DNA of 32,000 nt from Planctopirus limnophila DSM 3776 (GCF_000092105.1 NC_014148.1:1380001-1412000); one strand, 5' to 3'; shown: positions 5,591 to 27,508, numbered from the stretch's first letter. Numbers and translations are program-made. The notes: generated by a model not told the origin, from the sequence alone.

Positions 5591-5600
5591 CATGAGTTGG

Positions 5601-11060: not shown

Positions 11061-12362
11061 CGCTATTACGGGTTGTGCGGGAGAGATTTTTCGGACACTC
11101 AGGAGTTTGAGTGCAAGCGGCGAGTGTCGAATTCTCAGTCCTTTGTTTCCAGAAGCGAGTTTCCAGATCTGAACTCTGATTGCGGAATTTTTGGTCGGAG
11201 ATTTTGAGAGTTGGAATTCGAGGCCTGAGTTCCTTGTGTAGAAGATCACTCAGTCAAGCCGTCGATGCCATGTGCTGAGGTAAACAATCATGGTGTTTGG
11301 ATCGGCGCAAAAGTCACTGAGGTTTCACGAGCGCACATCGAACACGCAGTGGCCACCATTGGTATCTCATTAACCATGTCGCTGTTCAAACAGAGATCTG
11401 AAAAATGATCCCTATGGACACCAGACTTCAAAGAGACTCTTGAGGAGATGATTTTCAGAAAATGGGACTCAACAAACCCAGTCCACATTCGGATCAGGTT
11501 TCAGAGACGATTTTCGAATGCTCGTCGTTGTGAGAGTCGTCTTTGATCTTCTCGAAGTTTCTGTCGTCTCGATTCCCAGATGCAGGTGCTGATCAAGGCA
11601 TCGGAGCATTTTGAGGCGCCTGACAGCATCGACTGCCTGCTCTCCCAAAAAATGGATTGTTGTGCCAGGTGAGTCGCCTGATTCTCACGATGTCGCAGCT
11701 CTTAAGAAATCGCTCCAAAATCAATGGGTAGTCAGGGTAGTACGTTTGGCCGTCCAGGCCGTCCATTGTGCCTCAGGGGGCATTTTCAGAGCGCTGGCGA
11801 GCAAGTTTTTCACATAGAGTCATGTTTGTGGAACTCAAACGCTCGTTCAGGGGTCTGACGGCGGTCAGCTCGGTGGTCAGACACAATGGCAGAGAGTCTT
11901 CAAACATGATGTCAGACGAGCTGATGTCTGACAGGAAATTCGAACTGTCGTTCAGAAAACTTGTGCTGAAACAGTCCAGCCTGTGTCGTCAATTTTTCGG
12001 CTCTTGAAGAGTCCAGAACTTCAGAAGACCAATCATCGATTCTAAATGTTGATCTTCCGTGACGAAGTGAAGTTCGCAAAATCGTGAGCATCCAGAATCA
12101 TCACTTCGAAATTCTTTGTGCAAACCTTCTCTCGCAGTTTGAGCAGCAGAATCAGCACGCAGACATACAGCTTTGAAAAACTTCGTTGTGAGCGGTGATG
12201 AGAATTCGATTTGTGACAAGATTCTCAGACATGGTCAGCGCGATCTTTTTCAGAAAAAGATCTGGCTGTCGATCGTTCTTCAGAACATGTTCTTTCAGTG
12301 TCACCAATTTGTCAGTTTCACCAAGTTTTGAAATGCAGTTGAGTGCGAGTGGTGCTCACCTG

Positions 12363-12392
12363 CGACTGCGCAGAAAACTTTCTGCGCAGTCG
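12363..12392. repeat. Perfect 14-bp inverted repeat CGACTGCGCAGAAA-ac-TTTCTGCGCAGTCG
   Basis: Read directly. It contains two copies of the self-complementary octamer CTGCGCAG spaced 16 bp centre to centre. Confidence 0.9.
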
Positions 12393-12875
12393 AAAATCTG
12401 CAGCACGAAAAAACGTCAGAACAAGAACTGGCAGTGCTGAAACTTTTTTCTCGGGAAAACTTTTGCATGAACAGATCTCAGTGAGAAGTTGCTCAGTCGC
12501 GAAACTTGGGAACGTAATCATCAACCTTGAGAGAAAGACACTTCAGAATGCTCAGCCGCAGAATCTGGCATTCGAATGAGTTGGCATCATGATCGCCGAG
12601 ATATTTCTGATTTGAACAGACTCAGTCATGAATTAGCGAATGTCAGTCGCAAAAGTATCAGTTCAGAACAACTGACTGACTGTCTTAGAAAAATCAGACG
12701 GAAATCTCTCGAAAGAACAACAGCCTTCGAAAAGAAAACCAGCTCGAAAGAGAACTTGGAGAACTCTTCAAAACTGGAAACGAAAACGATTTCTAAATTG
12801 CAAGCGAAGCGAAGCAAAACACCGCGAAAACGCGAGCGGTAGCGAAGCGTTTTTGCGCAACGCCGACGTCGACGG

Positions 12876-12912
12876 CACCTTTCTCCTCACCTGAAAGGGG
12901 AGGAGAAAGGTG
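12876..12912. repeat. Strong hairpin: 13-bp perfect stem CACCTTTCTCCTC / GAGGAGAAAGGTG
   Basis: Read directly. The 11-nt loop can extend the stem (CC/GG) to leave about a 5-nt loop. No T-run follows on either strand, so it is not a classic terminator. Confidence 0.85.
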
Positions 12913-13000
12913 TCAAAACATTGACCAAACCACCAAATAAGATTCGAAAATCGATTCCGCTGGTTTTTGCTGTTTTTACGACACAGTTTTTGACAAAAAG

Positions 13001-13042
13001 ACGGAACACTGGAAATGATTTCGGTGTTCCGTTTCTGTTTTT
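13001..13042 (+). terminator. Terminator/attenuator-like hairpin abutting the RBS of the 13057 gene
   Basis: ACGGAACAC / GTGTTCCGT 9-bp stem with a 14-nt loop, followed by TTCTGTTTTT. Immediately after come GAGGAG (13043-13048) and GTG at 13057. Confidence 0.4.
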
Positions 13043-13056
13043 GAGGAGTGAATTCT

Positions 13057-14091
13057 GTGATTGAGAGCGACAAATCTTGGTTTGATTTCGATGACGACGA
13101 CGATGATCTGGACTGGTCGGTTATGGGGAAACCGATACCGCAGAAAGTTTCCAAAAAACAGGAGATTGAGAAGGAGTTGCAGGCATCCTGGGGGCGTTAT
13201 GGGTTTAGAAATCCATATCCCAGCAGTGACCTCGTGAAAGAATGGCAGTCGGTTGCTTACAGCGTGCTCGACGAGATCTGGCGATTGTGCGACAGCTACT
13301 GGCAGTATGACTTCACGCGATTGCGTGTCCGCCATAAATTGGCAGCCGCCGGAATCCTTCAAGCTCGACGCCTTTATGACATTCAAAAAATCGATCCAGA
13401 GTTTACCGGTGAGGTGTTTCTCAACCGTTATCATTGTTCGCCGCCAGGGCGACGCTCGCGTCTACAACAGTTAAGTTGCCATCAGAAATGGTTTTGCCCG
13501 TACTGCTGTCTTGCGTCTGCTCTTCGCAGTTATGGACTATGGGTGACAAGATTGCCGAATCGCAAAAATGGCGTGCTTGCCTACTATCAAGAAGATTTCC
13601 GTTATGACGGAGTCACAGCGAAGACAGCCGCAGAAACTTTTGATTTCACACTGTTGCAGTACCCTTATCGCTTGCGCATGCGGAAAGGACACCCCACAGC
13701 TGCGATGACCTGGTGTACCTTGTACCCTGTAGAATCCGGCAATACGCGGCATAAAGAATGCCCGGATCGTTTAACCGGTAATTGGGCTGGCGAGCGTCGT
13801 TACCTGTTGTTTTATCCTTCAGACGTCGACATGAAGCTGCCGAGAAATGACCGCATGTATTTGAAGAATTACGACTGGTTTTCCACAAAAGTTCTGGCGC
13901 GTTATGTCGGCAAAGTCTGTCAGTTTCGACGTAACTTGTTGGCAAAACGTTTCGCTCCCAACCTGGCAGCCCTTTATCGGCTGAAGAGAGATCCGCGACA
14001 TCGGTGTGTTGGCTCTCATTATCCGTTCAATGTGCATTCGCACTACGGCGAGCTTCGATCCAAATTTGATAACCCGGAATGGACCTTCTGA
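13057..14091 (+). CDS. Orphan hypothetical protein with N-terminal poly-Asp run and CxxxxxCPxCC knuckle
   Basis: ORF 13048..14091. The GTG at 13057 has GAGGAG 8 nt upstream. Features: FDFDDDDDDLDW, CHQKWFCPYCC, Tyr/Arg-rich. No family recognised. Confidence 0.55.
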   Translation: MIESDKSWFDFDDDDDDLDWSVMGKPIPQKVSKKQEIEKELQASWGRYGFRNPYPSSDLVKEWQSVAYSVLDEIWRLCDSYWQYDFTRLRVRHKLAAAGILQARRLYDIQKIDPEFTGEVFLNRYHCSPPGRRSRLQQLSCHQKWFCPYCCLASALRSYGLWVTRLPNRKNGVLAYYQEDFRYDGVTAKTAAETFDFTLLQYPYRLRMRKGHPTAAMTWCTLYPVESGNTRHKECPDRLTGNWAGERRYLLFYPSDVDMKLPRNDRMYLKNYDWFSTKVLARYVGKVCQFRRNLLAKRFAPNLAALYRLKRDPRHRCVGSHYPFNVHSHYGELRSKFDNPEWTF

Positions 14092-16360
14092 AAAACAAAA
14101 CAGCATCAGGGCAGATGCCACGCAACGCCGTTCAAGATTTTAGCAGGTGTTGAGCGGGTTTACGTTGGGCTTTTGCCAGGGGTTTCAAGGGGAGTGGGAA
14201 GTGGCTGCCGTTGATGTGGCCATGGCTGCGATTTCTTACTCCCTTTCCGGCGGTATTCATTTTTCAAAGCCTTGTTCGACACCGATTTTCAGCAGTCGGT
14301 CAGACTCTCAGGGATCTCTCGGTCGTCCTTGAGAATTCTCAGAAGTATTCGCTGTGAGGCTGCAGGAGACCAGCGGTAGAGTTTCTGACGTGCTTCGCGC
14401 AGTTCCAGCCGACTTTTCAGTCGCGACAGCCAGTATCCCGAGTGGTACTTGAGTCTTGTAACTCAGGCTCTCCCGATGGGTCACTTCTCTTACGCAGCCT
14501 GCATCTGCATCGCATCACCCGCCATTATGAGTCATCAACGGTGTTGGGTGCCGCCAGATTCTGCACAGAAGACGGATGGACTTCCGAAGTGACTTCTCAA
14601 AGACAAAATTCTGCGGGGAGCCAGGCCTGCGGACCCCGTCTTCGTACATCGCGAACCAACGAGTGCAGCCATGTCGCGGATCTTTTTTTTGCTCTTGGTG
14701 ACTGAGTCCCTAATGGGTCACCGCGGGCAGATGTTCTGTCCAGTTCAAAAAGTGTCGGCCTGAAAGCCAAGGACAAACATCATCCACTTCCCAAGAGAGC
14801 AAGCGAGTGATGCATCTCGTTTCTGATGGAGGAGAAAAAGCTCAAACACGTTCTCTCAGAGACAATGCGTGGCCCCACCTGACCTTTCAGGAAAAGCTCG
14901 CGTGGAACGAAGTACGATCAGGAGTCGCAGGGATTGATACACGCATCTGTTTTCTGTGTGTCAGAATGCTGAGTAATCGAGGTAGAAAGCTTCTTTAATA
15001 TTAAAGGAGTGTTATTCCTGTTGTAGAGGTCGTTTTCAAAGCCACTGAGAGGCAAGAAAAACAGCTTCTCACCGAGACGACAAAGTGGTTGAAGACGTCA
15101 TTCCAAGAGGTGTCTGATAAATACAGAGCTTATCATCCGAAGTCTGGGGTGAGATTCTCCGTAGAGTATGGGCCAGAAGTGGAGTTCAATCTGCCGGGGA
15201 ACGAGTCGCGTGAAGGGTCGGGAATTCGAAGATGACCTCTTAGTGGGAGCATTTGCGGATCAGAGAGAATAGAGTTCAAGAAAACTTCCCCAGGCGAGTC
15301 ACTCCGCAGTCGAGAGAGGTGTTATTGTGGGCGGAGTTTGGCAAAGGAATGATTGGGGGCGACAAGAATCCGCGAGTCAGTCCCTTTGACGAAAGGTTCT
15401 GCGAGTGAAGAGTGGACGTTCGCATGCCAGGGTGCGATTGGGATCAAACGGGGGAAGCCCGTAAGCGCGAGTCAGACAACATGTTTGGCGACGGGCTAGG
15501 ATGCCGAGAGGAAATCACTCATCCAGAGTCGATTTCCCAGACGCTGCCCGTGTTGAAGATCAAAGCATCGAAGGCGCGTGAGGTTGTCAGGCAATACTCG
15601 CAAATTCTCGGCAAGTTGACACCGCTTTTCCAGCACATGATTCAAAGAACGCTCGAAGCCCAAGCACCTGAGGCTGGCAATTCTCAGTGAGCATTCATTC
15701 CTCAACGGTTCTTCTGCGGAGATGTTTCCTGAGGTTTTAGGGGGTATCAGGGAGCCACGAGCGACACTGGGTAAGAAAATGACCGCTCTGGCCATAGTGC
15801 TTTGCCGAAGTGCAGACATTGTTTCGGAGTACTGGAGTACGAGCAGTCCGTGCTAGAGAGCATCAAGATCCGATTTGATTGACCGGCTTATAAGGGACGC
15901 AATCAGAGAAGTCGTTGAGACCCGATCGGAGCATTACCGTGGAGAATAAAATCAGGCTCTGTAATTGTAAGCTGTCGAATGAAGAGTGGCAGCGTGGAGT
16001 CCGAGAACATCAGAAATAGTGATGCAACTTGCGTGCATCTACGTTAGATCCCACATCTCTTGAGCTGAAATTCTATTGTCGAGATACGCTGATCTGCGGC
16101 TGATTCTCTTTCTCTAGAACGCATGGTTTTGAGTTGAAATGCAGTAAATGATGCATTTCGGAAAGGTTCACAGCTCAATGAAATGATGCGAAAAGTAGGG
16201 CGAAGTGATCAAGAAAACAAAAAAGCTATTGCGCAGGGAGTGCTTCTCGTAAAATAGATAGATCTGCCTCAAAAGGAGATAGGTTGACGGTTCAATAGAT
16301 GGTCCGTCAGCTTGCGAAAACGGATTCAATGTCAGATTAGTGATGAGCCAGGAGGGAACG

Positions 16361-16708
16361 ATGGAAGACAGTTTGGGACGCCCACTGACATTTTCTGAAT
16401 TAAAAAAGGAGATTGAGAGAGTTTATGGAGTGAAATTGCATTTAGGGACACTCCATCGCTGGCGGACTAGAGGAGTTCGCGGGAGATTTTTAAATGCCTG
16501 GAGATGTGGGGGACGCTGGATGTCGTCTCTCGTCGATGTGCGGATGATGATGGAACCTTGTGTTCCCGAATCTCCAAACAATGTCATGCCTCATTTGGAT
16601 ATGTCGCGCGTCGACAGAGAGTTTGACCGTCAAAAACGATGGCGGGTTCTCTATGTCCAGAGTGAGCTTGTCAATCGATTTCAGTTTCCACCCGAAAAGA
16701 CAATCTAA
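16361..16708 (+). CDS. Small HTH DNA-binding protein (excisionase/AlpA-like; reminiscent of planctomycete DUF1580 proteins)
   Basis: ATG at 16361 is preceded by AGGAGG (16350-16355). The motif LTFSELKKEIERVYGVKLHLGTLHRWRTRGVRGRFLNAWRCGGRWMSS is typical of small MerR/excisionase-type HTH proteins. Confidence 0.55.
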   Translation: MEDSLGRPLTFSELKKEIERVYGVKLHLGTLHRWRTRGVRGRFLNAWRCGGRWMSSLVDVRMMMEPCVPESPNNVMPHLDMSRVDREFDRQKRWRVLYVQSELVNRFQFPPEKTI

Positions 16709-16768: not shown

Positions 16769-16810
16769 CTGTTAATCTTTAGGTTCTTGGTTCGAATCCA
16801 AGTCGGGGAG
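16769..16810 (+). pseudogene. tRNA 3' half (anticodon loop CTGTTAA, so Asn GTT-like, through T-arm and acceptor 3' strand); no 5' half
   Basis: CTGTTAA-TCTTT-AGGTT-CTTGG-TTCGAAT-CCAAG-TCGGGGA-G has a canonical T-arm (GGTTCGAATCC), a 7-nt acceptor 3' strand and discriminator G. The complementary 5' acceptor TCCCCGA and a D-arm are absent upstream. Confidence 0.5.
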
Positions 16811-16858
16811 CTTTCGTCAAAATTCGAACTTTGGCGACCAAAAGACTTAACGCCCGGC

Positions 16859-16900
16859 GTCGAGAGATCGACCGCCGGGCGTTTTTCGTTTCTACCCAGT
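16859..16900 (+). terminator. Rho-independent terminator
   Basis: AACGCCCGGCGTCGA / TCGACCGCCGGGCGTT long GC stem with one bulge and a 4-nt loop, followed by TTTTCGTTT. Confidence 0.7.
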
Positions 16901-17130
16901 TTTTCGCGGGTTTCCAACGCTTTTCGCGTTCCGCCGGTCCAATCCGCCGCGCTCTCTGTTTGCAGAGAGATTTCCGTCTCTCGAACGCAACCTTCAAGGT
17001 TGCACCCGCCGGTGCGAAAAATCGGTCCCGAACTCTCTGACTCTCTCTTTTCGGGGGCCTCCAGAGTTAACGCAGAGTTCTCGTTCGGAGTCCGGATGAG
17101 AATGCATTCGAACACTCGACATCGTTCGGA

Positions 17131-17159
17131 ATGACAGCAAATGCGTCTCGCGATACAAT
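17131..17159 (+). promoter_or_regulatory. Candidate sigma70-like promoter for the three-gene operon
   Basis: ATGACA-17 nt-TACAAT, about 195 nt upstream of the ATG at 17355. Planctomycete promoter rules are poorly known, so this is weak. Confidence 0.25.
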
Positions 17160-17354
17160 TTAGAAAGCTATTGCATTTGTTAACGCATCAGCCCCTCATG
17201 CGTTCGCAAGGCTCAGGTCTGTGACGATCTGTTTTGGCCTGAACGACAACCTGCAAGGAGGTCCCCTGTCAGCAACGTGCTGTTGGCCCGCAATTCGGCC
17301 ATCACGAGCGAGAAGGGGGTGTTTTCAATAACCAGAATTTAGGACGGACGCTTG

Positions 17355-20300
17355 ATGGGAAAAAGTCGAACGGCAACCATACGCAGGGTTCCAGAGGGGG
17401 TGAGTCGGCGCAGTGTCAGGCCTTTCTCTGCACCCATTCTAGCCGGAATAAAGCCGGACACGATTTCGCTTATCCTGCTCAAAGACCAACCTGTAAGCTA
17501 CGTGCGACACTTGCTTGAGTCGGTGCCGCAGTCAGCAGCAGGTCTTGTCGGCGAACTTTTCCCTCAGGCTCTTAAGTCTTTGAGGCTAAAGCACACAAGC
17601 CCATGTACCGAACTGGCAAGTGAACTGAGGTGGCTTACCGCAATCTTTCTTCGTCATAAGGAAAGGCTTGAACAATGGGTCTCTCTCCGCACGGACTTTG
17701 AGCGATCAATGGTGTCGGGAGACTACCCGAAAGCACGTGTCCAGCTGTCAGAAGCCGAACTTCGTTTTGGAAAATCGATTTGGGCGATTGAAAGCGAGCT
17801 TCTTCTAGCGGAATGCTCCGAGGGCATAGAAGGAAATCGGATAGCACTACACCGAATCACGTCCGAGGCACCAAATTGGATCGCAGTACTTGCAACCTTT
17901 CTAAGTGAGCGCGTTGAGACAGCGCTAGCGCCGGTGGAATACGAAGCCGTCGTCCAGTCGCACCTGGACTTCAATGACGACTTTCACCCCATTGCGAGAA
18001 GCGCATTTTTTCGTGTTAGTCCTGCAAAACGGAACTCTATAGCAAATCTCGAAGATGTTTTAAATGTCGAGGAAAGTCACTCGCTGTGCGATAGGCTGAT
18101 AGTAAGCACACGGGTCCTGGAAAACCTGATTTTTCGAGAATCGAGTGATCTAGAACCCGGACTGTCAGACGCTATCCAGTCGTTAGCTGACTCAATAATT
18201 TGCCCGAGATTCCTCTTCCTGAAAAAGGCACTGAGAACGCGGACGCAACTCGATGCGACATCCTTGGAACAAAAAATCTTTCAAGCTGTTCACTACTACA
18301 CTCTTGGTGATTACGAAAATGCACGCTCGTTTGCGGAACAAGCGATAGTTGATTCTCCAGAAACCTTGGAGCCGTACGAGATATTTGTAAAGTCGAGCCT
18401 TCGTTTAGGCCGTCCTCCTGTGTGCCCTTTCAGTCAAGATTCAATCGCGGCCAAGATCTGTAGCAATCTGTCAATTGTTTTCTCGCGCGAGGACAAGATT
18501 AATTCTGCATTGGAAACTTTGTTGCGACTCGGCTACCAGTTGGATGGATTCGCAATTGGCCCGCAATTAAGAGCGTTCTACGCATTGCATTCATACGAGT
18601 CGAACCCACACGTACTGAGTCGCGAATGCGCAATTTATTCTTCGGCCTTCACCCCTCGAGTCGTTGTGTCTCTCTACAAGGACTCGCCTAATGCGTACAG
18701 TGAACTAGAATCACTTGAGCAACTGCATCCCTCGAATGCAGCCGTATCATTATTCAAGGCAAATCAGATAGCGATTCGATCAAGCACGACCCAGCTTCAA
18801 ATCGATCTCAATATTCCGAAAAAGCGACTGCTTCGAAACGAAGCTAATGTTTGCGAACAGTTGCGTTTGTATGATGCCGCGACGCACAAATATGATGAAG
18901 TCTTACGCGAACGCGACTCTACACTAGGGGAGAAATCAGAAGCTGCCTCAGGCCTATATCGCTGTTTGACAGCAAAGAATGAGTTCTCTAAAGCTGCGAG
19001 GCTTATCGTAGAGACAAGCCTCGAAAGACCGCAGATCATTGGAAAGTCGACGCTCATCGAATTACTGACACAATATCCAGAAGGTGGTGATGACGAAGTC
19101 AGTTCTGATATAGCATGGCCGATTCTCCATTTTCTCTCGCAACAGTTAGAATACGAAGAGAGATCACCTTCAAGACTCCACGACGTATTCGAAGACTTCC
19201 TAATTGCATGTTCCTGCAAAAAGCCATCAGAGTTGCTAAAGATCTCGAGCCAGTTTAACAATCGAGAGTTCTCGTTCTTCCTTCGAAACGTGTGCGCTTT
19301 CGAAGTCCTCGCAGAATCGTTTTGGTTCGAATCCCAAGACGAAATTGCTCTCGAGCGAATTTCCCTTTGTGAATGGCTTATTGAGAACGACCCGGAGAAC
19401 CGGCGAATCGACCAGGCGGAGATTGCTGAGATCAGCAGGATTCTCGCTATTCGTGAATTAACACATCATGCTGAGCGGTCAAGAATCTTCGTGGATACGG
19501 ATGCAATCATCGAGTCTCTTCCAAAGACAATTCTTGACCGAGCGACTCGGTGCATGACGCTCGGCATGCTCAAAGACGTCAGTCTCCGTCAAACTATAGA
19601 GATTACAAAAGCTCTAATGGAGGAAATTGACAATAGCAGGATCTTCATCATTGACGAAGGGTTTCGGCTTTTCAAACAAGTATTTGAGGACCTGAAGACA
19701 CAATTTTTATCCAGCAATAAGTACGGTCTAGACGCTAATCTGAGCCAGCGAATCCGCCATGGAACGCTAGCTGGGGCTCTCCGCGCGCCGTTCGAATCGC
19801 AACAACTTGTCACGCTTAAAGACAGCTCAGGAAGTTATATGCAAAACGATTTCTGGATAAGGCGAGTTTGTCGCAGTGAGCATGATTCGACTGGCCTAAG
19901 CGAAGCCTTGGCAGAGTTTTCGGCGACCGTTGATGGCATTATCTATCGAGTCAGGAATGAATGGGTTCAAATCCGACAGAGCTCGGGATCAAGTAGCGCA
20001 CTTTTCAATTTCGAGTTCACAGAAGACCAGCTCGTTTGCTTGTACGAAGCCACGCTTAGCGCGGAATCGCCAGCCGACATGGTTCGGAAAGTATTTGAAG
20101 CGTTATGGCAACGCACTGACGAAGCCCTAAAGGAGGTTAGAGCAACTATAGAAAATGCTCTTTCATCTGAACTCTTTGAGGCAATGAAGCGTTGCGAGCA
20201 GCGAATCGATTCAGTGATTGGGCATGATCAATCAATGCCTATTCGTGCTGCTTTCACAACTTGTGGAACGCATTTGACCATGGCGCTGAAAGCAATTTCG

Positions 20301-20825
20301 GAATGGTTTAGACTCGATGAGCAGAAGCATGTGCCTGACTGTCAGTTGCGCTCTCTATTAGAGGCTAGCACGGAAGCGGCGAAGCAATTTTGTGGGCCTT
20401 CGCGATTGGAGATAAACGTCATTTTGGATAACGACGTTACTGTACCCGGCAACCAATTCCGTGCTTTATGGGACATGCTTTTCATACTTCTTGATAATGC
20501 GGCGAAACACTCAGAATCGACGCAGACGAATGTGACAATCGAGGTTGTTGCCAATGGGCCGGTTATTAAGATGGTCTGCAAGAACGAATTGCCGAGCAAC
20601 ATCGACGTAGAGCTTCTGAAGGAGAAAGCGGCGAGACTAAATCAGATGACCGCAGACGAGCATTCGCTCGCGACTTCACGCGTCGAAGGCGGGAGCGGAT
20701 ACGGCAAGCTACACAAGATTTTGTGCTATGAGATGGGACTAGACAATTATCGAGTCTTTGTTAGTGCTGATTCAAATGAATTTCAGGCAGTCATTGAGCT
20801 CGAGGTACCATGGAGACGGCAATGA
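17355..20825 (+). CDS. dtcA: Detocs DtcA-like sensor: about 800 aa of helical/TPR-like repeats plus a C-terminal GHKL (HATPase_c) kinase domain
   Basis: 1156 aa from the ATG at 17355 (the track start at 17352 is TTG), with AGGACGGA upstream. A TPR-like unit is AVHYYTLGDYENARSFAEQAIVDSPETLEPYEIF. The N-box is LWDMLFILLDNAAKHS and the G-box is VEGGSGYGKLHKIL. No TM segments were seen. Confidence 0.75.
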   Translation: MGKSRTATIRRVPEGVSRRSVRPFSAPILAGIKPDTISLILLKDQPVSYVRHLLESVPQSAAGLVGELFPQALKSLRLKHTSPCTELASELRWLTAIFLRHKERLEQWVSLRTDFERSMVSGDYPKARVQLSEAELRFGKSIWAIESELLLAECSEGIEGNRIALHRITSEAPNWIAVLATFLSERVETALAPVEYEAVVQSHLDFNDDFHPIARSAFFRVSPAKRNSIANLEDVLNVEESHSLCDRLIVSTRVLENLIFRESSDLEPGLSDAIQSLADSIICPRFLFLKKALRTRTQLDATSLEQKIFQAVHYYTLGDYENARSFAEQAIVDSPETLEPYEIFVKSSLRLGRPPVCPFSQDSIAAKICSNLSIVFSREDKINSALETLLRLGYQLDGFAIGPQLRAFYALHSYESNPHVLSRECAIYSSAFTPRVVVSLYKDSPNAYSELESLEQLHPSNAAVSLFKANQIAIRSSTTQLQIDLNIPKKRLLRNEANVCEQLRLYDAATHKYDEVLRERDSTLGEKSEAASGLYRCLTAKNEFSKAARLIVETSLERPQIIGKSTLIELLTQYPEGGDDEVSSDIAWPILHFLSQQLEYEERSPSRLHDVFEDFLIACSCKKPSELLKISSQFNNREFSFFLRNVCAFEVLAESFWFESQDEIALERISLCEWLIENDPENRRIDQAEIAEISRILAIRELTHHAERSRIFVDTDAIIESLPKTILDRATRCMTLGMLKDVSLRQTIEITKALMEEIDNSRIFIIDEGFRLFKQVFEDLKTQFLSSNKYGLDANLSQRIRHGTLAGALRAPFESQQLVTLKDSSGSYMQNDFWIRRVCRSEHDSTGLSEALAEFSATVDGIIYRVRNEWVQIRQSSGSSSALFNFEFTEDQLVCLYEATLSAESPADMVRKVFEALWQRTDEALKEVRATIENALSSELFEAMKRCEQRIDSVIGHDQSMPIRAAFTTCGTHLTMALKAISEWFRLDEQKHVPDCQLRSLLEASTEAAKQFCGPSRLEINVILDNDVTVPGNQFRALWDMLFILLDNAAKHSESTQTNVTIEVVANGPVIKMVCKNELPSNIDVELLKEKAARLNQMTADEHSLATSRVEGGSGYGKLHKILCYEMGLDNYRVFVSADSNEFQAVIELEVPWRRQ

Positions 20826-21286
20826 AAATCCTAATCGCTGATGACGACCCAAATAAGATGCGGCAGCTCAAGTCGTTTGTTATGCAGGAGTTTGTCGATG
20901 CAGAAATACTAGAACGAAACTCCTTTAATAGCGCGCTTCGTTGCGCAATGCTGGACGAGCCTACAGTTATCCTCCTTGACATGACAATGCCGACTTTCGA
21001 TGTCGGTGGCAAAGAGACAGGTGGCTACGAGAGGCGATATGCGGGTTTTGAAGTTTTGCGTAGGCTCAAGCGAAGGAGAAAAGCAAGACGCGTAATAATC
21101 GTCACTCAGTTCGAACGATTCGGAGAAGGCGCGGACCAAATGACGTTAGAGCAGCTAAAGGAGCAGTTGGCGACACAATATCCGGAAAGCTACATCGTGA
21201 CCGTTTACTACCAAGCCTCCGATGCGCAATGGCGTGACGATCTCAGGGTGGCACTCGATATGGCAATTGAAAGGGCTATAGAATGA
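20822..21286 (+). CDS. dtcB: Detocs DtcB-like stand-alone receiver (REC) domain protein
   Basis: MKILIADDDPNK...TVILLDMTMP...RVIIVTQ carries the acidic pair, a phospho-acceptor Asp (D53 from this start) and the conserved Thr. The ATG at 20822 overlaps the dtcA stop (ATGA) and has GGAG 6 nt upstream. An alternative in-frame ATG is at 20810. Confidence 0.8.
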   Translation: MKILIADDDPNKMRQLKSFVMQEFVDAEILERNSFNSALRCAMLDEPTVILLDMTMPTFDVGGKETGGYERRYAGFEVLRRLKRRRKARRVIIVTQFERFGEGADQMTLEQLKEQLATQYPESYIVTVYYQASDAQWRDDLRVALDMAIERAIE

Positions 21287-22518
21287 CAGATATTCCGCTC
21301 CGAGTGCTGGTTGTTGATGACAATGAGGCAAAGCGCAACCGAATTCGTGGCGCTCTCGCAGACGCCGTAGGAGAACCGCAACTTGATTTGAAGTCAGCTT
21401 CTTCAGTTGCCGCCGCAGGTGCAATGCTTGAGTCGCATGATTTCGATTTACTGATTCTTGACCTCAACCTGCCTATGAGAGATGGTGAATCTCCGGTCAA
21501 AGATGGTGGTATGCGTTTGTTGCGAACTATTGTTCGAGGCGGGCCAAGGCTCAGGCGGCCCAAGCATATCGTTGGGCTCACAGAATTCGCAGATCTCTTC
21601 AAAGAGTCTGAATCTGAGATGGAGTCAGAGTCTTGGCAACTCTTGCATTATGCCTTTGACTCATCTGCATGGCAGGATGTTTTAGGCAGGAAAGCTGTCT
21701 ATATCACCGGGACCTTGGCGGGTATGCGTTCCGACGATGAGTACCAGACTGATTTAGCGATAATCACTGCACTGAAGGAGATCGAACTAGACGCTGTCCT
21801 TAGTCTTCCGTGTGAATGGAAGAGTTTGCGGAGAAGCCAAGATGACACGTATTACTATGAGGGACGTATTGAAACCGAAGGCGGACCGCTTAAGGTTGTG
21901 TGCTGTGCTGCAATTGAGATGGGAATGGCAGCAACTGCTTGCCTAGCGACAAAGGTTATCTACAATTTTTCGCCGCGTTATCTAGCGATGGCAGGAATAA
22001 CAGCCGGAATGGCGGGCAACTTTGGGGACGTGATCTTTGCCGATCAGTCGTGGGACTACGGGGCAGGCAAGGTCATAAATTCGTCCAACGCTGAAAGTGT
22101 GTTTAAGCCTGGACCAAACTACATTGCTGTGGATGCTGAACTGAAGGAAAAAGCGCAACATTTTAAGCAGACTCGAAGTGCAATTTTGCATGAGATAGAA
22201 TCCAGATGGCAGGGCAATACACCGTCATCGAGACTAAATCTCAGTATTGGTCCCGTTGCCTCTGGGGCAGCGGTTGTCGAGAGTCAAGAAATGATTGATG
22301 CCATACGCACTCACAACAGGAAACTAATCGGAGTAGAGATGGAAGTTTACGGAAGCTTCCTAGCCTGCCGGACTGCCAGGGCTCCTCGCCCGAAGTGTTT
22401 CGCGGCAAAGTCCATTTGTGACTTTGGCGCTCCACCCAAAACTGACGAATACCAAAAATATGCGGCATTTACCAGCGCTCAGTTTGTCCTAGAATTTGCG
22501 AAGCACTATCTTCGCTAG
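21283..22518 (+). CDS. dtcC: Detocs DtcC-like response regulator: N-terminal REC plus C-terminal PNP_UDP_1/MTA-SAH-nucleosidase-like effector domain
   Basis: The REC domain reads LRVLVVDDNEAK...FDLLILDLNLP...HIVGLTEF. The C-terminal half reads DLAIITALKEIELDAV...AIEMGMAATA...LAMAGITAGMAG...IGPVASGAAVV...LIGVEMEVYG...AAKSICDFG. It parallels MTAN/PNP landmarks (the EME substrate-binding motif and the ISD catalytic-Asp motif). Its ATG overlaps the dtcB stop (ATGA). Confidence 0.75.
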   Translation: MTDIPLRVLVVDDNEAKRNRIRGALADAVGEPQLDLKSASSVAAAGAMLESHDFDLLILDLNLPMRDGESPVKDGGMRLLRTIVRGGPRLRRPKHIVGLTEFADLFKESESEMESESWQLLHYAFDSSAWQDVLGRKAVYITGTLAGMRSDDEYQTDLAIITALKEIELDAVLSLPCEWKSLRRSQDDTYYYEGRIETEGGPLKVVCCAAIEMGMAATACLATKVIYNFSPRYLAMAGITAGMAGNFGDVIFADQSWDYGAGKVINSSNAESVFKPGPNYIAVDAELKEKAQHFKQTRSAILHEIESRWQGNTPSSRLNLSIGPVASGAAVVESQEMIDAIRTHNRKLIGVEMEVYGSFLACRTARAPRPKCFAAKSICDFGAPPKTDEYQKYAAFTSAQFVLEFAKHYLR

Positions 22519-22703
22519 TCTCTGCCAGGATTACTTTTTCCACGATCGGCCGGTTGCACCAAGCGGCAGGCCAAGCTAACGCCGGAAACGATTCAGGCAA
22601 ATTTCAAAAAACATAGGCAGCGCGTGACCAAACGTGTCAAAACGCGGGCTTAGATTGGTTCCCATCATTTTCGTTTCAATCCAAACTCAATGGGAGCCCA
22701 ACA

Positions 22704-23072
22704 ATGCAGTTCAAAGAAAAGACAACAACCCACCAGGTCGCTGTTCTCGAACAGGTCTGGAAACGCCTCAAAAACGCTGAGGTGCAGACAATAAATCAAA
22801 TCATGGATGCCACCGGACTACAGTTCGACGCTGTTTGCGAAGTCCTGTACGACTACGCGGAGCTGCCAGACTTCATCCAGTTGCTTCAAGACAAAGGATG
22901 CCTCGATGATGTGCCGTTCGACGCGTCAGAAATGGAAATGGGGAACCAGGTTCTCCTACTCACCAAGAAAGGTTTTGCTTGGGGCGATTTTGACGAAGAA
23001 CCGATCAATCAAGTTTTTGAACTGCTTGAGTCTGGCAACCGAGCGTCCGAAGACGACATTCCCGACCGTTGA
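22704..23072 (+). CDS. Acidic hypothetical protein (122 aa)
   Basis: ATG at 22704 has GGGAG 7 nt upstream. No recognisable motifs. It lies 186 nt downstream of dtcC. Confidence 0.5.
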   Translation: MQFKEKTTTHQVAVLEQVWKRLKNAEVQTINQIMDATGLQFDAVCEVLYDYAELPDFIQLLQDKGCLDDVPFDASEMEMGNQVLLLTKKGFAWGDFDEEPINQVFELLESGNRASEDDIPDR

Positions 23073-23148
23073 CTGCCAGGTATATCTGTTTAACGGTGGC
23101 GTCGTCTAACACCACCGTTGCACAAATACGCGATCGATGGATGATGCC

Positions 23149-23619
23149 CTACACGCCTTCGCCGCGAATGAGTCGATCGCGGATGTCTTCACAAAACGTG
23201 AAGGTTATGACAGCGGCATGTTCTTCGCGGGCTGGACTTCTATGCATCACGAACAATTGATCGTCCATCCGTACCCTGGTGCCATACTTTTCTGACTCGC
23301 GTTCCGAGGCATCTTTCAAGGCTCGCAAGAGTGCGAAGTAGTTACATCCCAAGACCCTGCACATCTCAACGTAAGGTGTAAAGAACTCGTGAGTTTCGAA
23401 GTAGTCACAACAGGACTCGATGAGATCTTGCGTGCAGATGCGATTAGAGGCTTCAAGCTGCCTACATTTCATCAAAAGTTTCAGTGATTGTGGTCGGCAG
23501 CAATACCCACGTTGCCTAATGTGCTCTGCTGCCTCCTCAATCGTCAGCAGCTGTTCACCGCGAACGATAGGCTTGCGCTCAAGCTCTACAAATTCTCCAA
23601 AGGTCAATCCAATTCTCAT
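23149..23619 (-). CDS. Cys-rich hypothetical protein (156 aa)
   Basis: Internal ATG at 23619 has AGGAG 8 nt upstream (plus-strand ctcct at 23628-23632). Translation starts MRIGLTFGEFVELERKPIVRGEQLLTIEEAAEHIRQRG..., which may be an HTH. It is convergent with the 22704 gene. Confidence 0.5.
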   Translation of the reverse strand: MRIGLTFGEFVELERKPIVRGEQLLTIEEAAEHIRQRGYCCRPQSLKLLMKCRQLEASNRICTQDLIESCCDYFETHEFFTPYVEMCRVLGCNYFALLRALKDASERESEKYGTRVRMDDQLFVMHRSPAREEHAAVITFTFCEDIRDRLIRGEGV

Positions 23620-23853
23620 TGGCACGGCTCCTATGATAAGCATTTGAATTGTGGCGAGGCAAAGTTGCCCGCCTACATGCTTATTACTTTCGAGCAGGGC
23701 AATTCGTAAAAAATTCCGCGAGAGATAGCAGATTGAGTCCACGGCGAATGCGTTCTCTTTCGCACCCTAATCCGTCATTTCGAACCCGCACCGGGTATTC
23801 CTACAGATAGACGCGGCTGTTGTGGCTGCGAATGTCTGTCTTCGAGCCGCTAA

Positions 23854-24150
23854 TCATGGCGGCGTTGAGCATGGAGGTGCGAGTTGCTTTCGACTGTTCC
23901 CCCTTCTTCCTTGTCTGCGCCGGCTCGGCGATCGGAAATCGCTGCGATTCTGGCGGCCGGCATCGTTCGGATGAAGTCGCGTATTGTTAAGCCCGGATGA
24001 AAATGGTGGCGCGGTTCGGTCGAAAACAGCGGCGCTGGGGATGAGAGGAAGCTTGGCTGGTGCGTTTGACTTCTTAGGCTTGGGTGCTCCAACGCGTTGT
24101 CGACCGTGGGATGATGAACTTGTTTCGAACTGGATCTTGAAGTGGCTCAT
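23854..24150 (-). CDS. Possible basic 98-aa protein coupled to the recombinase remnant
   Basis: Its ATG at 24150 overlaps the recombinase stop (ATGA, 24147-24150). The composition is Arg/Pro/Ser-rich and not convincing. Confidence 0.25.
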   Translation of the reverse strand: MSHFKIQFETSSSSHGRQRVGAPKPKKSNAPAKLPLIPSAAVFDRTAPPFSSGLNNTRLHPNDAGRQNRSDFRSPSRRRQGRRGNSRKQLAPPCSTPP

Positions 24151-25241
24151 GACTTCTCGCTTTCTTCTTTGTCAGGATTCTGGGTTGCAAATGACTTCAG
24201 CCCGAGCGGGCTAAGCGTAATGGACAAGGTGCTGTCGGCTGGATCGTGATCGATGCGTGCTACCAACTGGGACATCAGTCGGCTGCGATCGCCCATCGTG
24301 AGATGTTCCCACAATCCTTCGAGATTCTTGATGGCCTTGCGAATGGTCTGTCGATCAGGTGCACCGGCGTGGATCTTTGCGAGTTGGTCTTTCAAATCGT
24401 TGCGACGGCGCAGGTCGCGAGTCTGTTGCTCGGTGAGCGATGCAAGTGAATCGAGACGTTTGACTTCGCGTGCATCATCGCCTGTGGGAATCGAAATGGC
24501 GTCAATTGCTCGCTCGAGGTTGACCAAGCTTTCGTTCAGTAGAGACAACTCTTTCCGAAGCGTATCCCCTTTGTCGTTAATGGTTCGGCTGACGCGAAGG
24601 CTGGTTTCGTTGAGAAGGTGTTCGTCGATTGTCAGCGTTTGGAGTTGTGCCACCACAAAACGTTCGACCTCCTCCGCCGGCAACGATGGCCTGGGGCAAG
24701 TCTTGTGGCCGCGTTTCTTCGCTTTGTTGCAAACGTAGTAGCGATATCGTTTGCTGCCACGGCCGCTTCCGCCGCTGGTCGAATGCGTCATCATGGAATC
24801 GCAGGCTGAGCAACGCAGCAAACCAGCCAGCACGCCGGGGGATTTGCCGTGGATGCGATCGCCAATGCTGACGCGGTTGGCATTGAGCTTCTTCTTTACC
24901 GCTGCAAAGACCTCCGGATCAACGATGGCTCGGTGCTCGCCTTCGTACATCTCGTCGCGATAGCTGACTTTGCCGATGTAGATCGGATTGGTTAGTAAGC
25001 TGTGCAGTGTCGTTTTGTAGAACAGACCGCCGCCGAGTTGCTTGCCAGTTTTGGTGACCCAGCTCTTTGCTCGCCAACCTCGGGCTTGGATGGCTTCGAG
25101 AGTTCCAATGAGTCCCTCGCATTCAAGGTAGAGATCGAAGATCTGACGAACTCGCTCTGCTTCCAGTTCGTTGACGATCAGCTTCTTGGTCGCTCGATCG
25201 ACGTCGTAAACGTAAGCGATGCGCTTGGGATAACTCAGCAA
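24147..25241 (-). pseudogene. Large serine recombinase lacking its N-terminal resolvase catalytic domain (5'-truncated)
   Basis: The recombinase domain reads [31 protein letters not shown]...LLTNPIYIGKVSYRDEMYEGEHRAIVDPEVF. The zinc ribbon reads GLLRCSACDSMM...RYYVCNKAKKRGHKTC, followed by a coiled-coil tail. The ORF begins at a TTG immediately after an in-frame TAA, and no resolvase-type catalytic domain lies upstream. Confidence 0.75.
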
Positions 25242-25277
25242 TCGAAAAGCTTATCGCCAATTTTTCAAGCAATTAAC

Positions 25278-25808
25278 ATGCGATTGCCCTGCACAGAGCC
25301 CACAGCCGTCATTCTGGATGGACGGACGTTACAATCCACTCCTGAGAGCGGCGGCAGAGTTGTCTATGATGGTCACAAAAGGAGAAAAGGATCAAAAACT
25401 CATGCTGCGGTTGATACTTGAGAGCATTTAATCGCGGTCACGGTCAATTGAGCGAATGAACAGGAGCGTCAGCAGGTGGCAAAACTGACAGCAGTGATCC
25501 AGGAAGTGACTCATGAGCAGGTCACTGTGGCCTATGTTGATCAGGGCGACACCGGAGATCAGCCACGAAACGACGCCTCTGAGAATGGGATTCAGCTGGA
25601 AGTGGTCAAGCATACCGAGGCGAAGAAAGGCTTTGTACTGCTGCCTCGTCGATGGGTTGTCGAACGGACATTTGCCTGGCTGGGACGCTCACGCCGATTG
25701 ACCCGTGATGATGAACGACTGACAAAAGTTGTGGCAGGCTGGCACTGGGTCGCCATGATGTCACTATTGATCAAATATATCCCGGAAATCATCCAGAACA
25801 GTCCGTAA
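25278..25808 (+). pseudogene. IS5/IS4-superfamily DDE transposase remnant: 5'-truncated, with two in-frame stops
   Basis: A single frame reads ...[51 protein letters not shown]...[12 protein letters not shown]...[30 protein letters not shown]. The TGA stops are at 25419-25421 and 25449-25451. The N-terminal third of a normal IS5-type transposase is missing. Confidence 0.75.
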
Positions 25809-25826
25809 CAGGCTCTAGGCTATGAA

Positions 25827-25879
25827 TACAGGGAATCGGATCTGCTTGAGTCTGCGGATCCAGTTCCCTGTATTTTTTA
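25827..25879 (+). terminator. Hairpin plus T-run after the transposase remnant
   Basis: ATACAGGGAA / TTCCCTGTAT 10-bp stem around a 28-nt partly self-paired loop, followed by TTTTTT. Confidence 0.45.
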
Positions 25880-25981
25880 GGTCTTTGCCAGTGTGCGAAG
25901 TTAAGCTTTGCACCAAGATGTTGCGATCGCGATCAGGCTGCAGGGCAGCATGATCGCCATAAGCTTGACGAGGGAGTCACC

Positions 25982-27220
25982 TTAACCGATTTCGGCAGCG
26001 ACTTGCATGGCCAGCTTGAGATTGCGTTCGGCATAGACTTGAGTCACGTCCGCTGTTGCATGACCTAACGCGACCTGAGCGGCTTCCAGCCCATACCGGC
26101 GACGGACCTCTGTGCCGTGTGTATGCCGAATCTGGTAGGGAAACCAGTGTTGGACGGCATGACCAGCCTTCTGGGCCTTGCGAATTCCATAGGTGATGCA
26201 GCGGCGATACGCATCGACGTCGTAGCAGGGTTGCAGTTGCCTCACCTTGGGAGCCGCTTGACGCTTGGCTTTGCGCTGGATCCGAGCCTTCAGTTCACAG
26301 GGAAAGATTTTTGTTTTGCGATCAGGATTGCGGTGGACAGCACGCTGCTCGTTCCGCCACGCCTCGGCTTCTGCGGGAGTGAAGCAGAAGTCTTTAGGAT
26401 CGCGATTCAGGAAGGGAGCCAGAACGGCCTGCGCCTGAGGCCCTAACGGGACATGCTTCTCAAAGCCGAGATGTTCGGTTTTGTGATGTTCGGGGGTGTA
26501 AAGCCAAATGGCCCCCGATCGATCGATGTCACAGGGACGCATATGGAGCACTTCGGAAGGTCGCATGCCGGTCAGCAGTTGGAGCTGGCAGATGGCGGCC
26601 ACAGGAGGTGGGAGGAAGGGGAGTGTCAGATGGATTTGTGAGATATCGACAGGACGCACTGGTCGCGACTCGTGGGCCTCAGATCGTCCACGTCTCAGGC
26701 CTGACACGGCACTAAGACCATGCAGAATGGTCGGAGAGACGAGTTCTTCCGAGACGGCCCACTTGAAGACGCGTTTGATGCGACCCATCCGGCGATTGAT
26801 TTCCGTGCGGCTGAGTTTGTGGACATCAATCATGTGCTGCCGAACAGCTTTGAACGACTTGGGGCCAAAATCCTGAGTGAGAGTGCTTCCATAAAGTGCA
26901 TGAAGTGGTCGAAGAGCATGGTTCATGCTTTGTGGTTCACGGGACCTCGGACCGTAGTAAGTCGTGGCAAATTCGAGATAGGCCAGAATCATCTCACTGA
27001 TGGTGAGATCCTGAGTGGGAGTTGATTGACCTGAGTTGGCCTGGGCCACTTGCAACTGATGCTGTTGTGACGCCAGTTCGGCGAGGAGGCGGGAGTACCG
27101 CTGAAGTGTCTCAGGGTCACCGTAAGGCCCCAGATAAAGATCCTTACCTTGGATCCGGACACGGGCACAACCTGAAGGTTTGTGGAGCGAGAGTTTTGGA
27201 ATTCTGGGCGTCTTGGGCAT
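25982..27220 (-). CDS. Tyrosine-type site-specific integrase
   Basis: ATG at 27220 has GAGGA 7 nt upstream. The catalytic-domain landmarks are LLTGMRPSEVLHMR (Arg I), HKTEH, PYQIRHTHGT (H-x-x-R) and LGHATADVTQVYAE (catalytic Tyr). It sits directly next to the 3' end of tRNA-Arg. Confidence 0.85.
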   Translation of the reverse strand: MPKTPRIPKLSLHKPSGCARVRIQGKDLYLGPYGDPETLQRYSRLLAELASQQHQLQVAQANSGQSTPTQDLTISEMILAYLEFATTYYGPRSREPQSMNHALRPLHALYGSTLTQDFGPKSFKAVRQHMIDVHKLSRTEINRRMGRIKRVFKWAVSEELVSPTILHGLSAVSGLRRGRSEAHESRPVRPVDISQIHLTLPFLPPPVAAICQLQLLTGMRPSEVLHMRPCDIDRSGAIWLYTPEHHKTEHLGFEKHVPLGPQAQAVLAPFLNRDPKDFCFTPAEAEAWRNEQRAVHRNPDRKTKIFPCELKARIQRKAKRQAAPKVRQLQPCYDVDAYRRCITYGIRKAQKAGHAVQHWFPYQIRHTHGTEVRRRYGLEAAQVALGHATADVTQVYAERNLKLAMQVAAEIG

Positions 27221-27243
27221 AGTGCGATCCTCGAACATTTTCG

Positions 27244-27267
27244 AAAAGTGGTAGTACTACCACTTTT
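27244..27267. repeat. Perfect 24-bp palindrome AAAAGTGGTAGTACTACCACTTTT between int and tRNA-Arg
   Basis: Read directly. It is flanked by direct TCGAACA words at 27231-27237 and 27268-27274, and lies 24 nt upstream of the int start codon. Confidence 0.9.
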
Positions 27268-27342
27268 TCGAACAGTTTCGAGCCGCACTGCCCAACGCAG
27301 GCAGGTATGCTAACTACAGCATTCGGCTGGACTTATGAAAAA

Positions 27343-27416
27343 TGTCCCCGAGTGGGTTCGAACCACTAACCTTCGGCTTCGGAGGCCGACGCTCTATCCA
27401 GTTGAGCTACGGAGAC
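27343..27416 (-). tRNA. tRNA-Arg (anticodon CCG), 74 nt, CCA not encoded
   Basis: Hand-folded cloverleaf of the minus strand: GTCTCCG-TA-GCTC-AACTGGATA-GAGC-G-TCGGC-CTCCGAA-GCCGA-AGGTT-AGTGG-TTCGAAC-CCACT-CGGGGAC-A. All stems pair, with one G-U in the acceptor. Confidence 0.9.
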
Positions 27417-27508
27417 AACAGGCCTGACCATATGCTGATCAGGTCTTTGAAGTATCCCAAGAAATGGGAAAGAGTCAAACCAATGCCCTCTTGATGAACC
27501 TTCCAAAC

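Follow-up and report, generated by a model that had tools for sequence, protein, structure and literature searches.

A predicted Detocs antiphage system carried by a small integrative element in Planctopirus limnophila DSM 3776

The dtcABC operon, its effector and its lone receiver

The window analysed here is a stretch of 32,000 nucleotides (nt) from Planctopirus limnophila DSM 3776 (GCF_000092105.1 NC_014148.1:1380001-1412000), with positions counted from its first letter. It encodes three adjacent genes, dtcA, dtcB and dtcC, which very probably constitute a Detocs antiphage system carried by a small integrative element next to a tRNA-Arg gene. The computations presented here establish the layout of the genes, the family to which their products DtcA, DtcB and DtcC belong, the folds, the conserved residues and the mobile context. 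As stated in the original prediction, which had been made from the sequence without database searches, the open reading frames (ORFs) are co-directional on the plus strand and joined by ATGA stop/start overlaps, located precisely at 20822-20825 and 21283-21286. Protein lengths of 1156, 154 and 411 aa are counted from the starts chosen in that prediction; candidate starts for dtcA are TTG 17352 and ATG 17355, and the dtcB start at ATG 20822 has an in-frame alternative, ATG 20810. The features of the operon are:

17355..20825, plus strand: dtcA (Plim_1099), cytoplasmic sensor kinase, 1156 aa; PADLOC model PDC-M60A, E 1e-92; exact match to ADG66936.1
18246..19037, plus strand: TPR-like repeats of DtcA, residues ~298-354 and ~494-561; sub-threshold Pfam TPR_2, TPR_19 and TPR_14
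19758..19760, plus strand: codon of H802, the predicted phospho-accepting His of DtcA, in the motif YGLDxxLSxRIRHGTLxGxxR; present in 42/42 homologues
20346..20822, plus strand: GHKL-type ATP-binding domain of DtcA, residues ~998-1156; AlphaFold2 model, Foldseek and conservation
20822..21286, plus strand: dtcB (Plim_1100), lone receiver, 154 aa; PADLOC model PDC-M60B, E 1.5e-36; exact match to ADG66937.1
21283..22518, plus strand: dtcC (Plim_1101), receiver-PNP effector, 411 aa; PADLOC model PDC-M60C, E 1.8e-106; exact match to ADG66938.1

For a Detocs assignment, Rousset et al. (2023; bioRxiv 10.1101/2023.01.24.525353) required all three genes and tolerated no more than one foreign gene among them, and the immediate succession of dtcA, dtcB and dtcC with 4-nt overlaps agrees with this gene order. 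In a scan of the PADLOC library, which had been proposed as a check of the original prediction, the three proteins matched the PDC-M60 A, B and C models with the E-values listed above; DtcC also matched the “PN-superfamily” effector model of CBASS (1.2e-15). The PDC-M60 models served as a proxy for the hidden Markov models (HMMs) of the Detocs discoverers and were identified by scanning the validated proteins that Rousset et al. give in their Table S1 against the same library. Vibrio alginolyticus DtcC matched PDC-M60C (1.4e-64, 216 bits), and PDC-M60B was matched by the DtcB proteins of V. alginolyticus (1e-17) and Enterobacter cloacae (5.8e-28); we therefore equate PDC-M60 with Detocs. The N-terminal 399 aa of V. 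alginolyticus DtcA, the only part scanned, gave no match to PDC-M60A, and for the A model the equivalence is presumed. The P. limnophila proteins outscore the validated ones on these models, with 354 versus 216 bits for DtcC and 124 versus 62 to 96 bits for DtcB. The description of the operon as a divergent member of the family consequently has to be abandoned in favor of a consensus-like, mainstream one, whereas its assignment as a Detocs-type DtcA/DtcB/DtcC set with a receiver-PNP effector is borne out by the family models, the comparison with validated proteins, the functional residues, two structure models and the gene order.

DtcC (gene 3) combines a receiver domain (residues ~1-150), whose predicted phospho-acceptor is D60 (21460-21462), with a nucleosidase domain of the PNP/MTAN fold (residues ~155-411). 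The receiver is recognized by Pfam Response_reg with 31.6 bits against a gathering threshold of 30.2. The landmarks from which a nucleosidase had been proposed, ITAGMAG, GVEMEVYG and KSICDFG, are in place at residues 239, 350 and 376, respectively; they include E352-M353-E354 and the predicted catalytic D380 (22420-22422). A Pfam scan yielded no PNP_UDP_1 match at E<0.1. For this reason the PNP assignment draws on the structure model, on the best NCBIfam match (MTAN, 1.4e-10) and on the precomputed annotation of a protein identical to DtcC, which lists PF01048. In the AlphaFold2 model of DtcC (45 homologues, mean pLDDT 93.6), a receiver of (beta-alpha)5 topology precedes an alpha/beta domain. 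All of the top 50 Foldseek matches of this model in the PDB were 5'-methylthioadenosine/S-adenosylhomocysteine (MTA/SAH) nucleosidases (4x24_A with 8.4e-17, and also E. coli 1NC1), on which it superposes with TM scores of 0.73-0.82 normalized on the target. The prediction that gene 3 fuses a receiver to an MTAN/PNP-like domain thus holds at the level of the modeled fold. By sequence, the similarity to a solved structure was weak (PDB 4jos, 2.7e-4), but the EME and S-I-x-D motifs were aligned; the PDB sequence search returned distant MTAN, receiver and TPR matches, and no Detocs or Cap17 chain. DtcC is colinear with DtcC of V. alginolyticus in BLASTP (residues 6-402 versus 2-375, 25% identity, E 2e-27). 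Both residues that were mutated in the V. alginolyticus protein are retained, D58 as D60 and D353 as D380, and neither varies among the 34 and 45 homologues that were aligned. DtcC accordingly shows the effector layout of Detocs, a receiver with its Asp fused to a PNP domain with its catalytic Asp.

DtcB (gene 2) is a bare receiver, as had been predicted (Response_reg, 33.6 bits against the same gathering threshold). Its predicted phospho-acceptor D53 (20978-20980) aligns with the Asp of the LDM(S/T)(L/M)P motif in DtcB of V. alginolyticus (23% identity, E 1e-7) and E. cloacae (32% identity, E 3e-22), and the protein thus corresponds to the lone receiver with a phospho-accepting Asp that is found in Detocs.

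Among the known systems closest to the operon is Detocs of V. alginolyticus UCD-32C. The two share the gene order, the domain layout (TPR plus kinase in the first protein, a receiver on its own in the second, a receiver joined to a PNP domain in the third), the phospho-acceptor Asp, the catalytic Asp of the PNP domain, the PADLOC models and, in the DtcA family, the His of the RIRHGTL motif. They differ in sequence (25 and 23% identity for DtcC and DtcB, respectively) and in the length of DtcA, which is ~180 residues longer in P. limnophila (1156 versus ~975 aa, the latter estimated from published coordinates). Furthermore, the P. limnophila operon resides in a planctomycete, is part of an integrative element and is characterized here by computation alone. 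Detocs-hydrolase of E. cloacae JD6301 has the same A-B-C order, and its DtcB and the receiver of its DtcC are related to the P. limnophila proteins (32%, E 3e-22, and 28%, E 2e-15, respectively), but its effector is a transmembrane alpha/beta hydrolase instead of a PNP nucleosidase. Cap17 (TPALS-PNP) from the type III CBASS of E. coli KTE188 belongs to the same PNP clade as DtcC, which aligns weakly with part of the Cap17 PNP domain (E 5e-7). The activation differs, however: Cap17 responds through a cyclic-nucleotide-binding TPALS/SLOG domain, whereas DtcC would be activated by phosphotransfer to its receiver. MtnN/Pfs (1NC1, 4X24) has the same fold, with TM scores of 0.77-0.82 on the target, and carries the EME and S-x-D catalytic motifs at equivalent positions. 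In contrast to DtcC, with which it shares 17-24% identity, it is a housekeeping single-domain protein of ~230 aa that lacks a receiver and acts on nucleosides, not nucleoside triphosphates, and in the PNP tree MtnN forms a separate clade (Rousset et al., 2023, Table S3). DtcC also stays far below the MtnN equivalog cut-offs (41 bits versus 169 for PRK05584, 16 versus 73.8 for TIGR01704).

The sensor kinase DtcA

DtcA (gene 1) was described in the original prediction as a cytoplasmic protein with long helical or TPR-like repeats and a C-terminal GHKL ATPase. A cytoplasmic location is consistent with its hydropathy profile, in which the highest 19-residue Kyte-Doolittle mean is 1.38 and no stretch is as hydrophobic as a membrane helix. 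The TPR character is less well backed. TPR_2 scored 21.6 bits against a cut-off of 27, and the region showed weak matches in the PDB to Hop TPR2A, and a profile search weakly matched consensus TPR proteins and LapB. We presume that this N-terminal part is the sensor region. PF27260 (“Y4jQ”) is annotated on a near-identical cluster representative of DtcA and on the exact gene of locus L001.

HisKA and HATPase_c gave no match at E<0.1 in the Pfam scan, so that, among the profiles suggested for the three proteins beforehand, Response_reg was recovered for genes 2 and 3, TPR remained sub-threshold, and HATPase_c, HisKA and PNP_UDP_1 drew a blank. The assignment of the GHKL domain, whose motifs LLDNAAKHS and GGSGYG are located at residues 1045 and 1112, therefore rests on structure models. 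An AlphaFold2 model of residues 640-1156 (42 homologues, pLDDT 87.1) shows long helices followed by an alpha/beta sandwich, and Foldseek matched it to PDK2, PDK4, HK853, DivL, BceS and a LOV-histidine kinase (E ~1e-6 to 1e-5, probability 1.00). PDK-type GHKL kinases resemble DtcA structurally at least as well as HK853 does. In addition, the family profile weakly matched the catalytic domain of PhoQ (E 0.03). The proposed GHKL fold is thereby upheld. Among 42 diverse homologues, the N-box Asn N1048 (FILLDNxxKHS) is invariant, as are E1111, G1115 and K1118 of the G2-like motif EGG(S/T)G(Y/F)xK (residues 1111-1118).

HK853 and the PDK/BCK-type kinases share with DtcA the arrangement of a helical module ahead of a GHKL domain that contains an N-box Asn and a glycine-rich G2 loop. 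Unlike kinases of the HK853 type, DtcA has no Pfam HisKA or HATPase_c match and is devoid of a canonical G1 box (DxGxG). The end of the beta-hairpin, which holds this box in classical kinases, is occupied in 39 of the 42 homologues by an Asn (N1077, 20583-20585) in place of the adenine-contacting Asp. DtcA thus falls outside the classical HisKA plus HATPase_c kinases, but has the N box, the G2-like motif and a GHKL-kinase-like fold. Its probable phospho-acceptor is also unusually placed. H802 is the sole His that is invariant in all 42 family members (H1052, within the N box, is conserved in 39), and the region around it forms a helical module distinct from the hairpin just in front of the ATPase domain. 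The distance from H802 to N1048 amounts to 246 residues, compared with ~100-120 residues between the H-box His on the DHp helix and the N box in classical histidine kinases and ~105-115 residues in HK853 or EnvZ. To judge from the family alignment, the His placement and the G1 Asn are properties of the whole family and not peculiar to this locus; we did not find these features discussed by Rousset et al. (2023).

H802 appears to be the equivalent of H645 in V. alginolyticus DtcA. A search for relatives of the latter, conducted with its N-terminal 399 aa, retrieved fragments and one protein (P0126) that is 28% identical to this N-terminus, carries PF27260 and has the RIRHGTL His at residue 624. 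At a motif further upstream that both proteins share, the register is offset by +23, which projects this residue to position ~647 of V. alginolyticus DtcA, close to the published H645, and we take H802 as the phospho-accepting His for this reason.

An exhaustive HMMER search with DtcA recovered 2339 cluster representatives (E<=1e-3). The majority of the listed ones extend over the full length of ~1150 aa, and the best match has 40% identity. A word-index search had returned only two near-identical proteins, but the rarity of DtcA that this seemed to indicate was dismissed in view of the HMMER result; the sparse word-index result therefore reflects a fast-evolving sequence.

Distribution, proposed mode of action and alternatives

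Scanning of the species representatives in GTDB (one genome per species) with the DtcC alignment identified 80 loci, of which 48 encode a full-length receiver-PNP protein; the remaining 32 match in the PNP domain only and have other architectures. According to DtcA and DtcB HMMs, applied to the ORFs immediately upstream on the same strand, dtcA, dtcB and dtcC are colinear in 42 of the 48 loci with full-length DtcC. Five of the six exceptions are loci cut by contig ends, and the sixth, in Agrobacterium larrymoorei (L030), comprises dtcB and dtcC with no dtcA within 8 kb upstream. The hosts belong to the Planctomycetota, Bacteroidota, several proteobacterial classes, Desulfobacterota, Campylobacterota, Acidobacteriota, Verrucomicrobiota, Gemmatimonadota and Firmicutes, the same operon being present, for instance, in Clostridium saccharoperbutylacetonicum. 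In Rubripirellula reticaptiva it adjoins a DUF4011 helicase, a metallophosphatase with cREC and a HicB/PIN pair, and in Corallococcus coralloides transposases and a HEPN-like gene.

Some loci deserve separate mention. A metagenome-assembled genome (MAG) of the Phycisphaerales (L008, JAQGHL010000115.1, 10001-11224) contains a full-length DtcC-like gene, 52% identical to P. limnophila DtcC, amid housekeeping genes and with neither dtcA nor dtcB beside it; this copy and the one in A. larrymoorei may be orphan or degraded systems. A complete dtcA-dtcB-dtcC operon is located on an 11 kb, DPANN-binned contig of a MAG labelled Candidatus Nanoarchaeia archaeon (L053, JAQUVJ010000027.1), and may represent a rare archaeal Detocs or, alternatively, contamination of the bin. 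Small cREC_REC (PF20274) genes lie within a few kb of Detocs at two loci (L005, 4538-5766, and L009, 18545-18906), beside a metallophosphatase in Rubripirellula and in fragmentary form in Clostridium, and they may belong to a further conflict system built on receivers and encoded alongside Detocs.

A further copy is found in the Pirellulaceae MAG BC2.51 (L036), where dtcB and the kinase half of dtcA are ~99% identical to P. limnophila. There, dtcA is split over three reading frames (4077-7539), and the NCBI annotation gives fragments. By tblastn, amino acid identity to DtcA is 78% over residues 1-708 and 98.8% over residues 709-1138. Codon analysis resolved the former region into residues 1-300 with ~99% identity and a random-level divergence after about residue 520, which points to indels or frameshifts in the MAG copy. 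Diversifying selection on the DtcA sensor, which this comparison had suggested, was hence rejected as an artefact or pseudogene effect; the MAG gene represents a pseudogene or else an error of the assembly. For the kinase half, the ratio of non-synonymous to synonymous differences (pN/pS) is 0.066 (dN/dS 0.062), which indicates purifying selection.

The functional interpretation draws on the experimentally studied V. alginolyticus system, which defends against phages T2, T4, T5, T6 and SECphi27 and requires H645 of DtcA as well as D58 and D353 of DtcC for this activity (Rousset et al., 2023). Its DtcC releases adenine from ATP and, more weakly, from dATP, growth is arrested without lysis, and mutation of the DtcB Asp is toxic (Rousset et al., 2023). 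PNPs of the Cap17 clade are the effectors in ~80% of Detocs systems, and are encoded near defence systems in 18% of cases compared with 2.6% expected (Rousset et al., 2023, Table S3); cleavage of ATP and dATP has been demonstrated for Cap17, DtcC and two eukaryotic homologues of this clade (Rousset et al., 2023). In the literature collection that was searched, no later mechanistic or structural paper on Detocs was found. By analogy, P. limnophila DtcA would sense a cue of infection via its cytoplasmic helical, TPR-like N-terminal region, whereupon its C-terminal GHKL ATPase would phosphorylate His802. The phosphoryl group would then be passed on to Asp60 in the receiver of DtcC and thereby activate the PNP/MTAN-fold domain with its catalytic Asp380 and Glu352/Glu354. 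This domain is expected to cut the N-glycosidic bond of ATP and dATP, yielding adenine as well as (deoxy)ribose-5'-triphosphate, so that energy and a DNA precursor would run down and the infection would abort. DtcB could act as a phosphate sink, its Asp53 competing for the phosphoryl group and damping leaky DtcA activity. For the P. limnophila locus, the trigger, the substrate and all biochemical steps are accordingly tentative.

A number of points weigh against this interpretation. To our knowledge, there is no known phage of Planctopirus, and an antiphage function in P. limnophila is presumed from the V. alginolyticus homologue, to whose DtcC the effector is only 25% identical. The specificity of the PNP domain for ATP is not something that its sequence reveals. 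In DtcA, Pfam failed to detect HisKA and HATPase_c, the missing G1 box and the 246-residue spacing render the geometry of autophosphorylation uncertain, and the likely equivalence of H802 and H645 was deduced from a motif and an offset, not from a direct alignment. Lastly, the correspondence of Plim_1099-1101 to the published catalogue entries discussed below is itself inferred.

With the kinase in mind, one may ask whether DtcA proteins are classical histidine kinases at all. The position of the His, the G1 Asn and the matches to PDK-type kinases could be explained by an unusual phosphorelay, for example HPt-like or in trans and TPR-gated, with unusual geometry or nucleotide preference. We consider this unlikely, yet worth keeping in view, as it would be a finding on the family level with nothing peculiar to this locus.

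A Detocs architecture could also act through an effector with another substrate, such as MTA/SAH, AMP, NAD-derived compounds or signalling nucleotides, and kill cells or arrest their growth by another route. The low identity to the characterized DtcC would permit this, among solved structures MTA/SAH nucleosidases and futalosine hydrolase come nearest, and MTAN is the best NCBIfam match (1.4e-10), although the latter is well under its cut-off. However, DtcC falls within the main family model and outscores the validated protein, and it is assigned to the Cap17 clade, where it clusters with many Detocs DtcC proteins (Table S4) and where Cap17, DtcC and two eukaryotic homologues cleave ATP/dATP (Rousset et al., 2023). 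A different substrate is thus improbable. The MTAN fold of the effector might even suggest ordinary two-component control of a housekeeping nucleosidase, for instance in methionine/S-adenosylmethionine salvage or quorum-sensing metabolism, with no role in defence, and on one side of the Corallococcus operon there are indeed genes for an aromatic-amino-acid lyase and an aspartokinase. Such a role is extremely hard to reconcile with an operon that is cargo of an element 99.3% identical in two species at different tRNA genes, and that occurs patchily over many phyla in a fixed three-gene order. Moreover, homologues of all three genes conferred phage defence in experiments, DtcA has no usual membrane or small-ligand sensing domain, and the operon borders on transposases and a HEPN-like gene in Corallococcus and on the DUF4011 helicase, cREC and HicB/PIN genes in Rubripirellula.

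Another conceivable reading is that the operon is inactive, or that it is an addiction-like module that retains its element, with DtcB buffering toxic DtcA/DtcC. The element shows signs of decay (a truncated serine recombinase and remnants of insertion sequences, IS), dtcA is frameshifted in the related MAG, and the toxicity caused by loss of the DtcB Asp in the published system is reminiscent of a toxin-antitoxin pair. On the other hand, the three ORFs are intact with every functional residue conserved, and dtcA changes are mostly synonymous relative to Planctopirus hydrillae and show the low pN/pS of 0.066 relative to the MAG copy, while stabilization of the element would be compatible with defence. 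We therefore judge inactivity or mere addiction to be very improbable and retain the Detocs antiphage system as the preferred interpretation.

The system had been rightly identified in the original prediction, but its novelty was overrated, as the family was described and validated in 2023. Nor can the operon be called an unrecorded, planctomycete-type member: Rousset et al. (2023) include dtcA, dtcB and dtcC of P. limnophila DSM 3776 in their Tables S4 and S5, where they are assigned to the PNP type and bear the IMG identifiers 646786811-13. In Table S4, 646786813 is a Cap17-clade PNP in Detocs context that clusters with DtcC from Acinetobacter, Bacteroides, Bacillus and Clostridium. The entries agree with this operon in genome, in effector type and in the A-B-C order of ascending numbers, and each table has a single one; we therefore infer that these identifiers denote Plim_1099-1101 and that the locus was already catalogued by the discoverers of Detocs. 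As a discovery the operon therefore matters little. Its value is modest and lies in a clean, intact and consensus-like Detocs in the cultured type strain of a planctomycete, a phylum whose phage biology is barely studied, and in the documented movement of Detocs as near-identical cargo of a small tRNA-associated element between Planctopirus species. The odd ATP site and His placement throughout the DtcA family would merit structural study of sensing and kinase firing.

The integrative element and its surroundings

The operon is the main cargo of an element that is delimited by its identity to P. hydrillae. Together with the flanking tRNA gene and a promoter-like site, the following features were annotated:

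16802..27341, no strand: integrative element, ~10.5 kb, with the Detocs operon as main cargo; identity to P. hydrillae
17131..17159, plus strand: promoter-like site ATGACA-17-TACAAT, ~195 nt upstream of dtcA; 10/12 in a consensus scan, weak, planctomycete promoters being poorly known
24147..25241, minus strand: large serine recombinase lacking the N-terminal catalytic domain; Pfam Recombinase and Zn_ribbon_recom only, phrog_95 positions 245-561 of 651
25982..27238, minus strand: tyrosine integrase; Pfam Phage_integrase 1.2e-9, phrog_1 integrase 2e-27
27342..27417, minus strand: tRNA-Arg(CCG), its 3' end abutting the integrase end of the element; ARAGORN, Rfam tRNA 68 bits

Positions 16799-27409 are 99.3% identical to P. 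hydrillae JC280 (L010), where the flanks are unrelated at both the DNA and the protein level and the right end of the element abuts tRNA-Arg(TCG) instead of tRNA-Arg(CCG). Within this region, the Detocs operon differs from its P. hydrillae counterpart at 10 of 5161 nt (in dtcA, four synonymous and two non-synonymous substitutions) and the integrase at 35 of 1257. In the MAG BC2.51 the left part of the element starts right after tRNA-Asn(GTT) and runs into a different recombinase backbone. Regarding the “integrase-bounded island” postulated originally, a mobile island with an intact tyrosine integrase next to tRNA-Arg on its right side could be verified, but there is no integrase at the left end. 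To the right of the element follow the core genes rsmB and aroA.

Two small ORFs of the element (22704-23072 and 23149-23742) had no matches in the libraries searched, and PADLOC and PHROGs scans of them revealed no further defence system. Between the tyrosine integrase and the truncated serine recombinase there are two short ORFs (25,002-25,808, plus strand) that, judged by eye from a motif, resemble pieces of an IS5-family transposase; the serine recombinase was probably truncated by an IS insertion.

No direct repeat of the 3' end of tRNA-Arg was detected within the window. The left junction (16,781-16,805, plus strand; CTTGGTTCGAATCCAAGTCGGGGAG) resembles a tRNA T-arm plus 3' acceptor-stem strand and abuts the start of the element. 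This tRNA-like remnant, at which neither ARAGORN nor Rfam called a tRNA, points into the element, its orientation being the reverse of that of the tRNA-Arg on the right side. At the same junction the MAG BC2.51 has an intact tRNA-Asn(GTT).

To the left of the element, the stretch 10,000-16,300 has few ORFs >120 aa and a GC content of 0.44-0.51, compared with 0.55-0.60 further leftward. It is followed by a gene of the planctomycete-typical DUF1580 family (16340-16708), with which the low-GC stretch ends, and may be a decayed older island beside the Detocs element. In the high-GC part, an AAA ATPase (6954-8459, minus strand) has weak similarity to the IetA models of PADLOC (7e-16); its neighbours within 5,840-9,193 on the same strand are an ORF that matched no family (5840-6907) and a gene for a DUF2997 protein (8621-9193).

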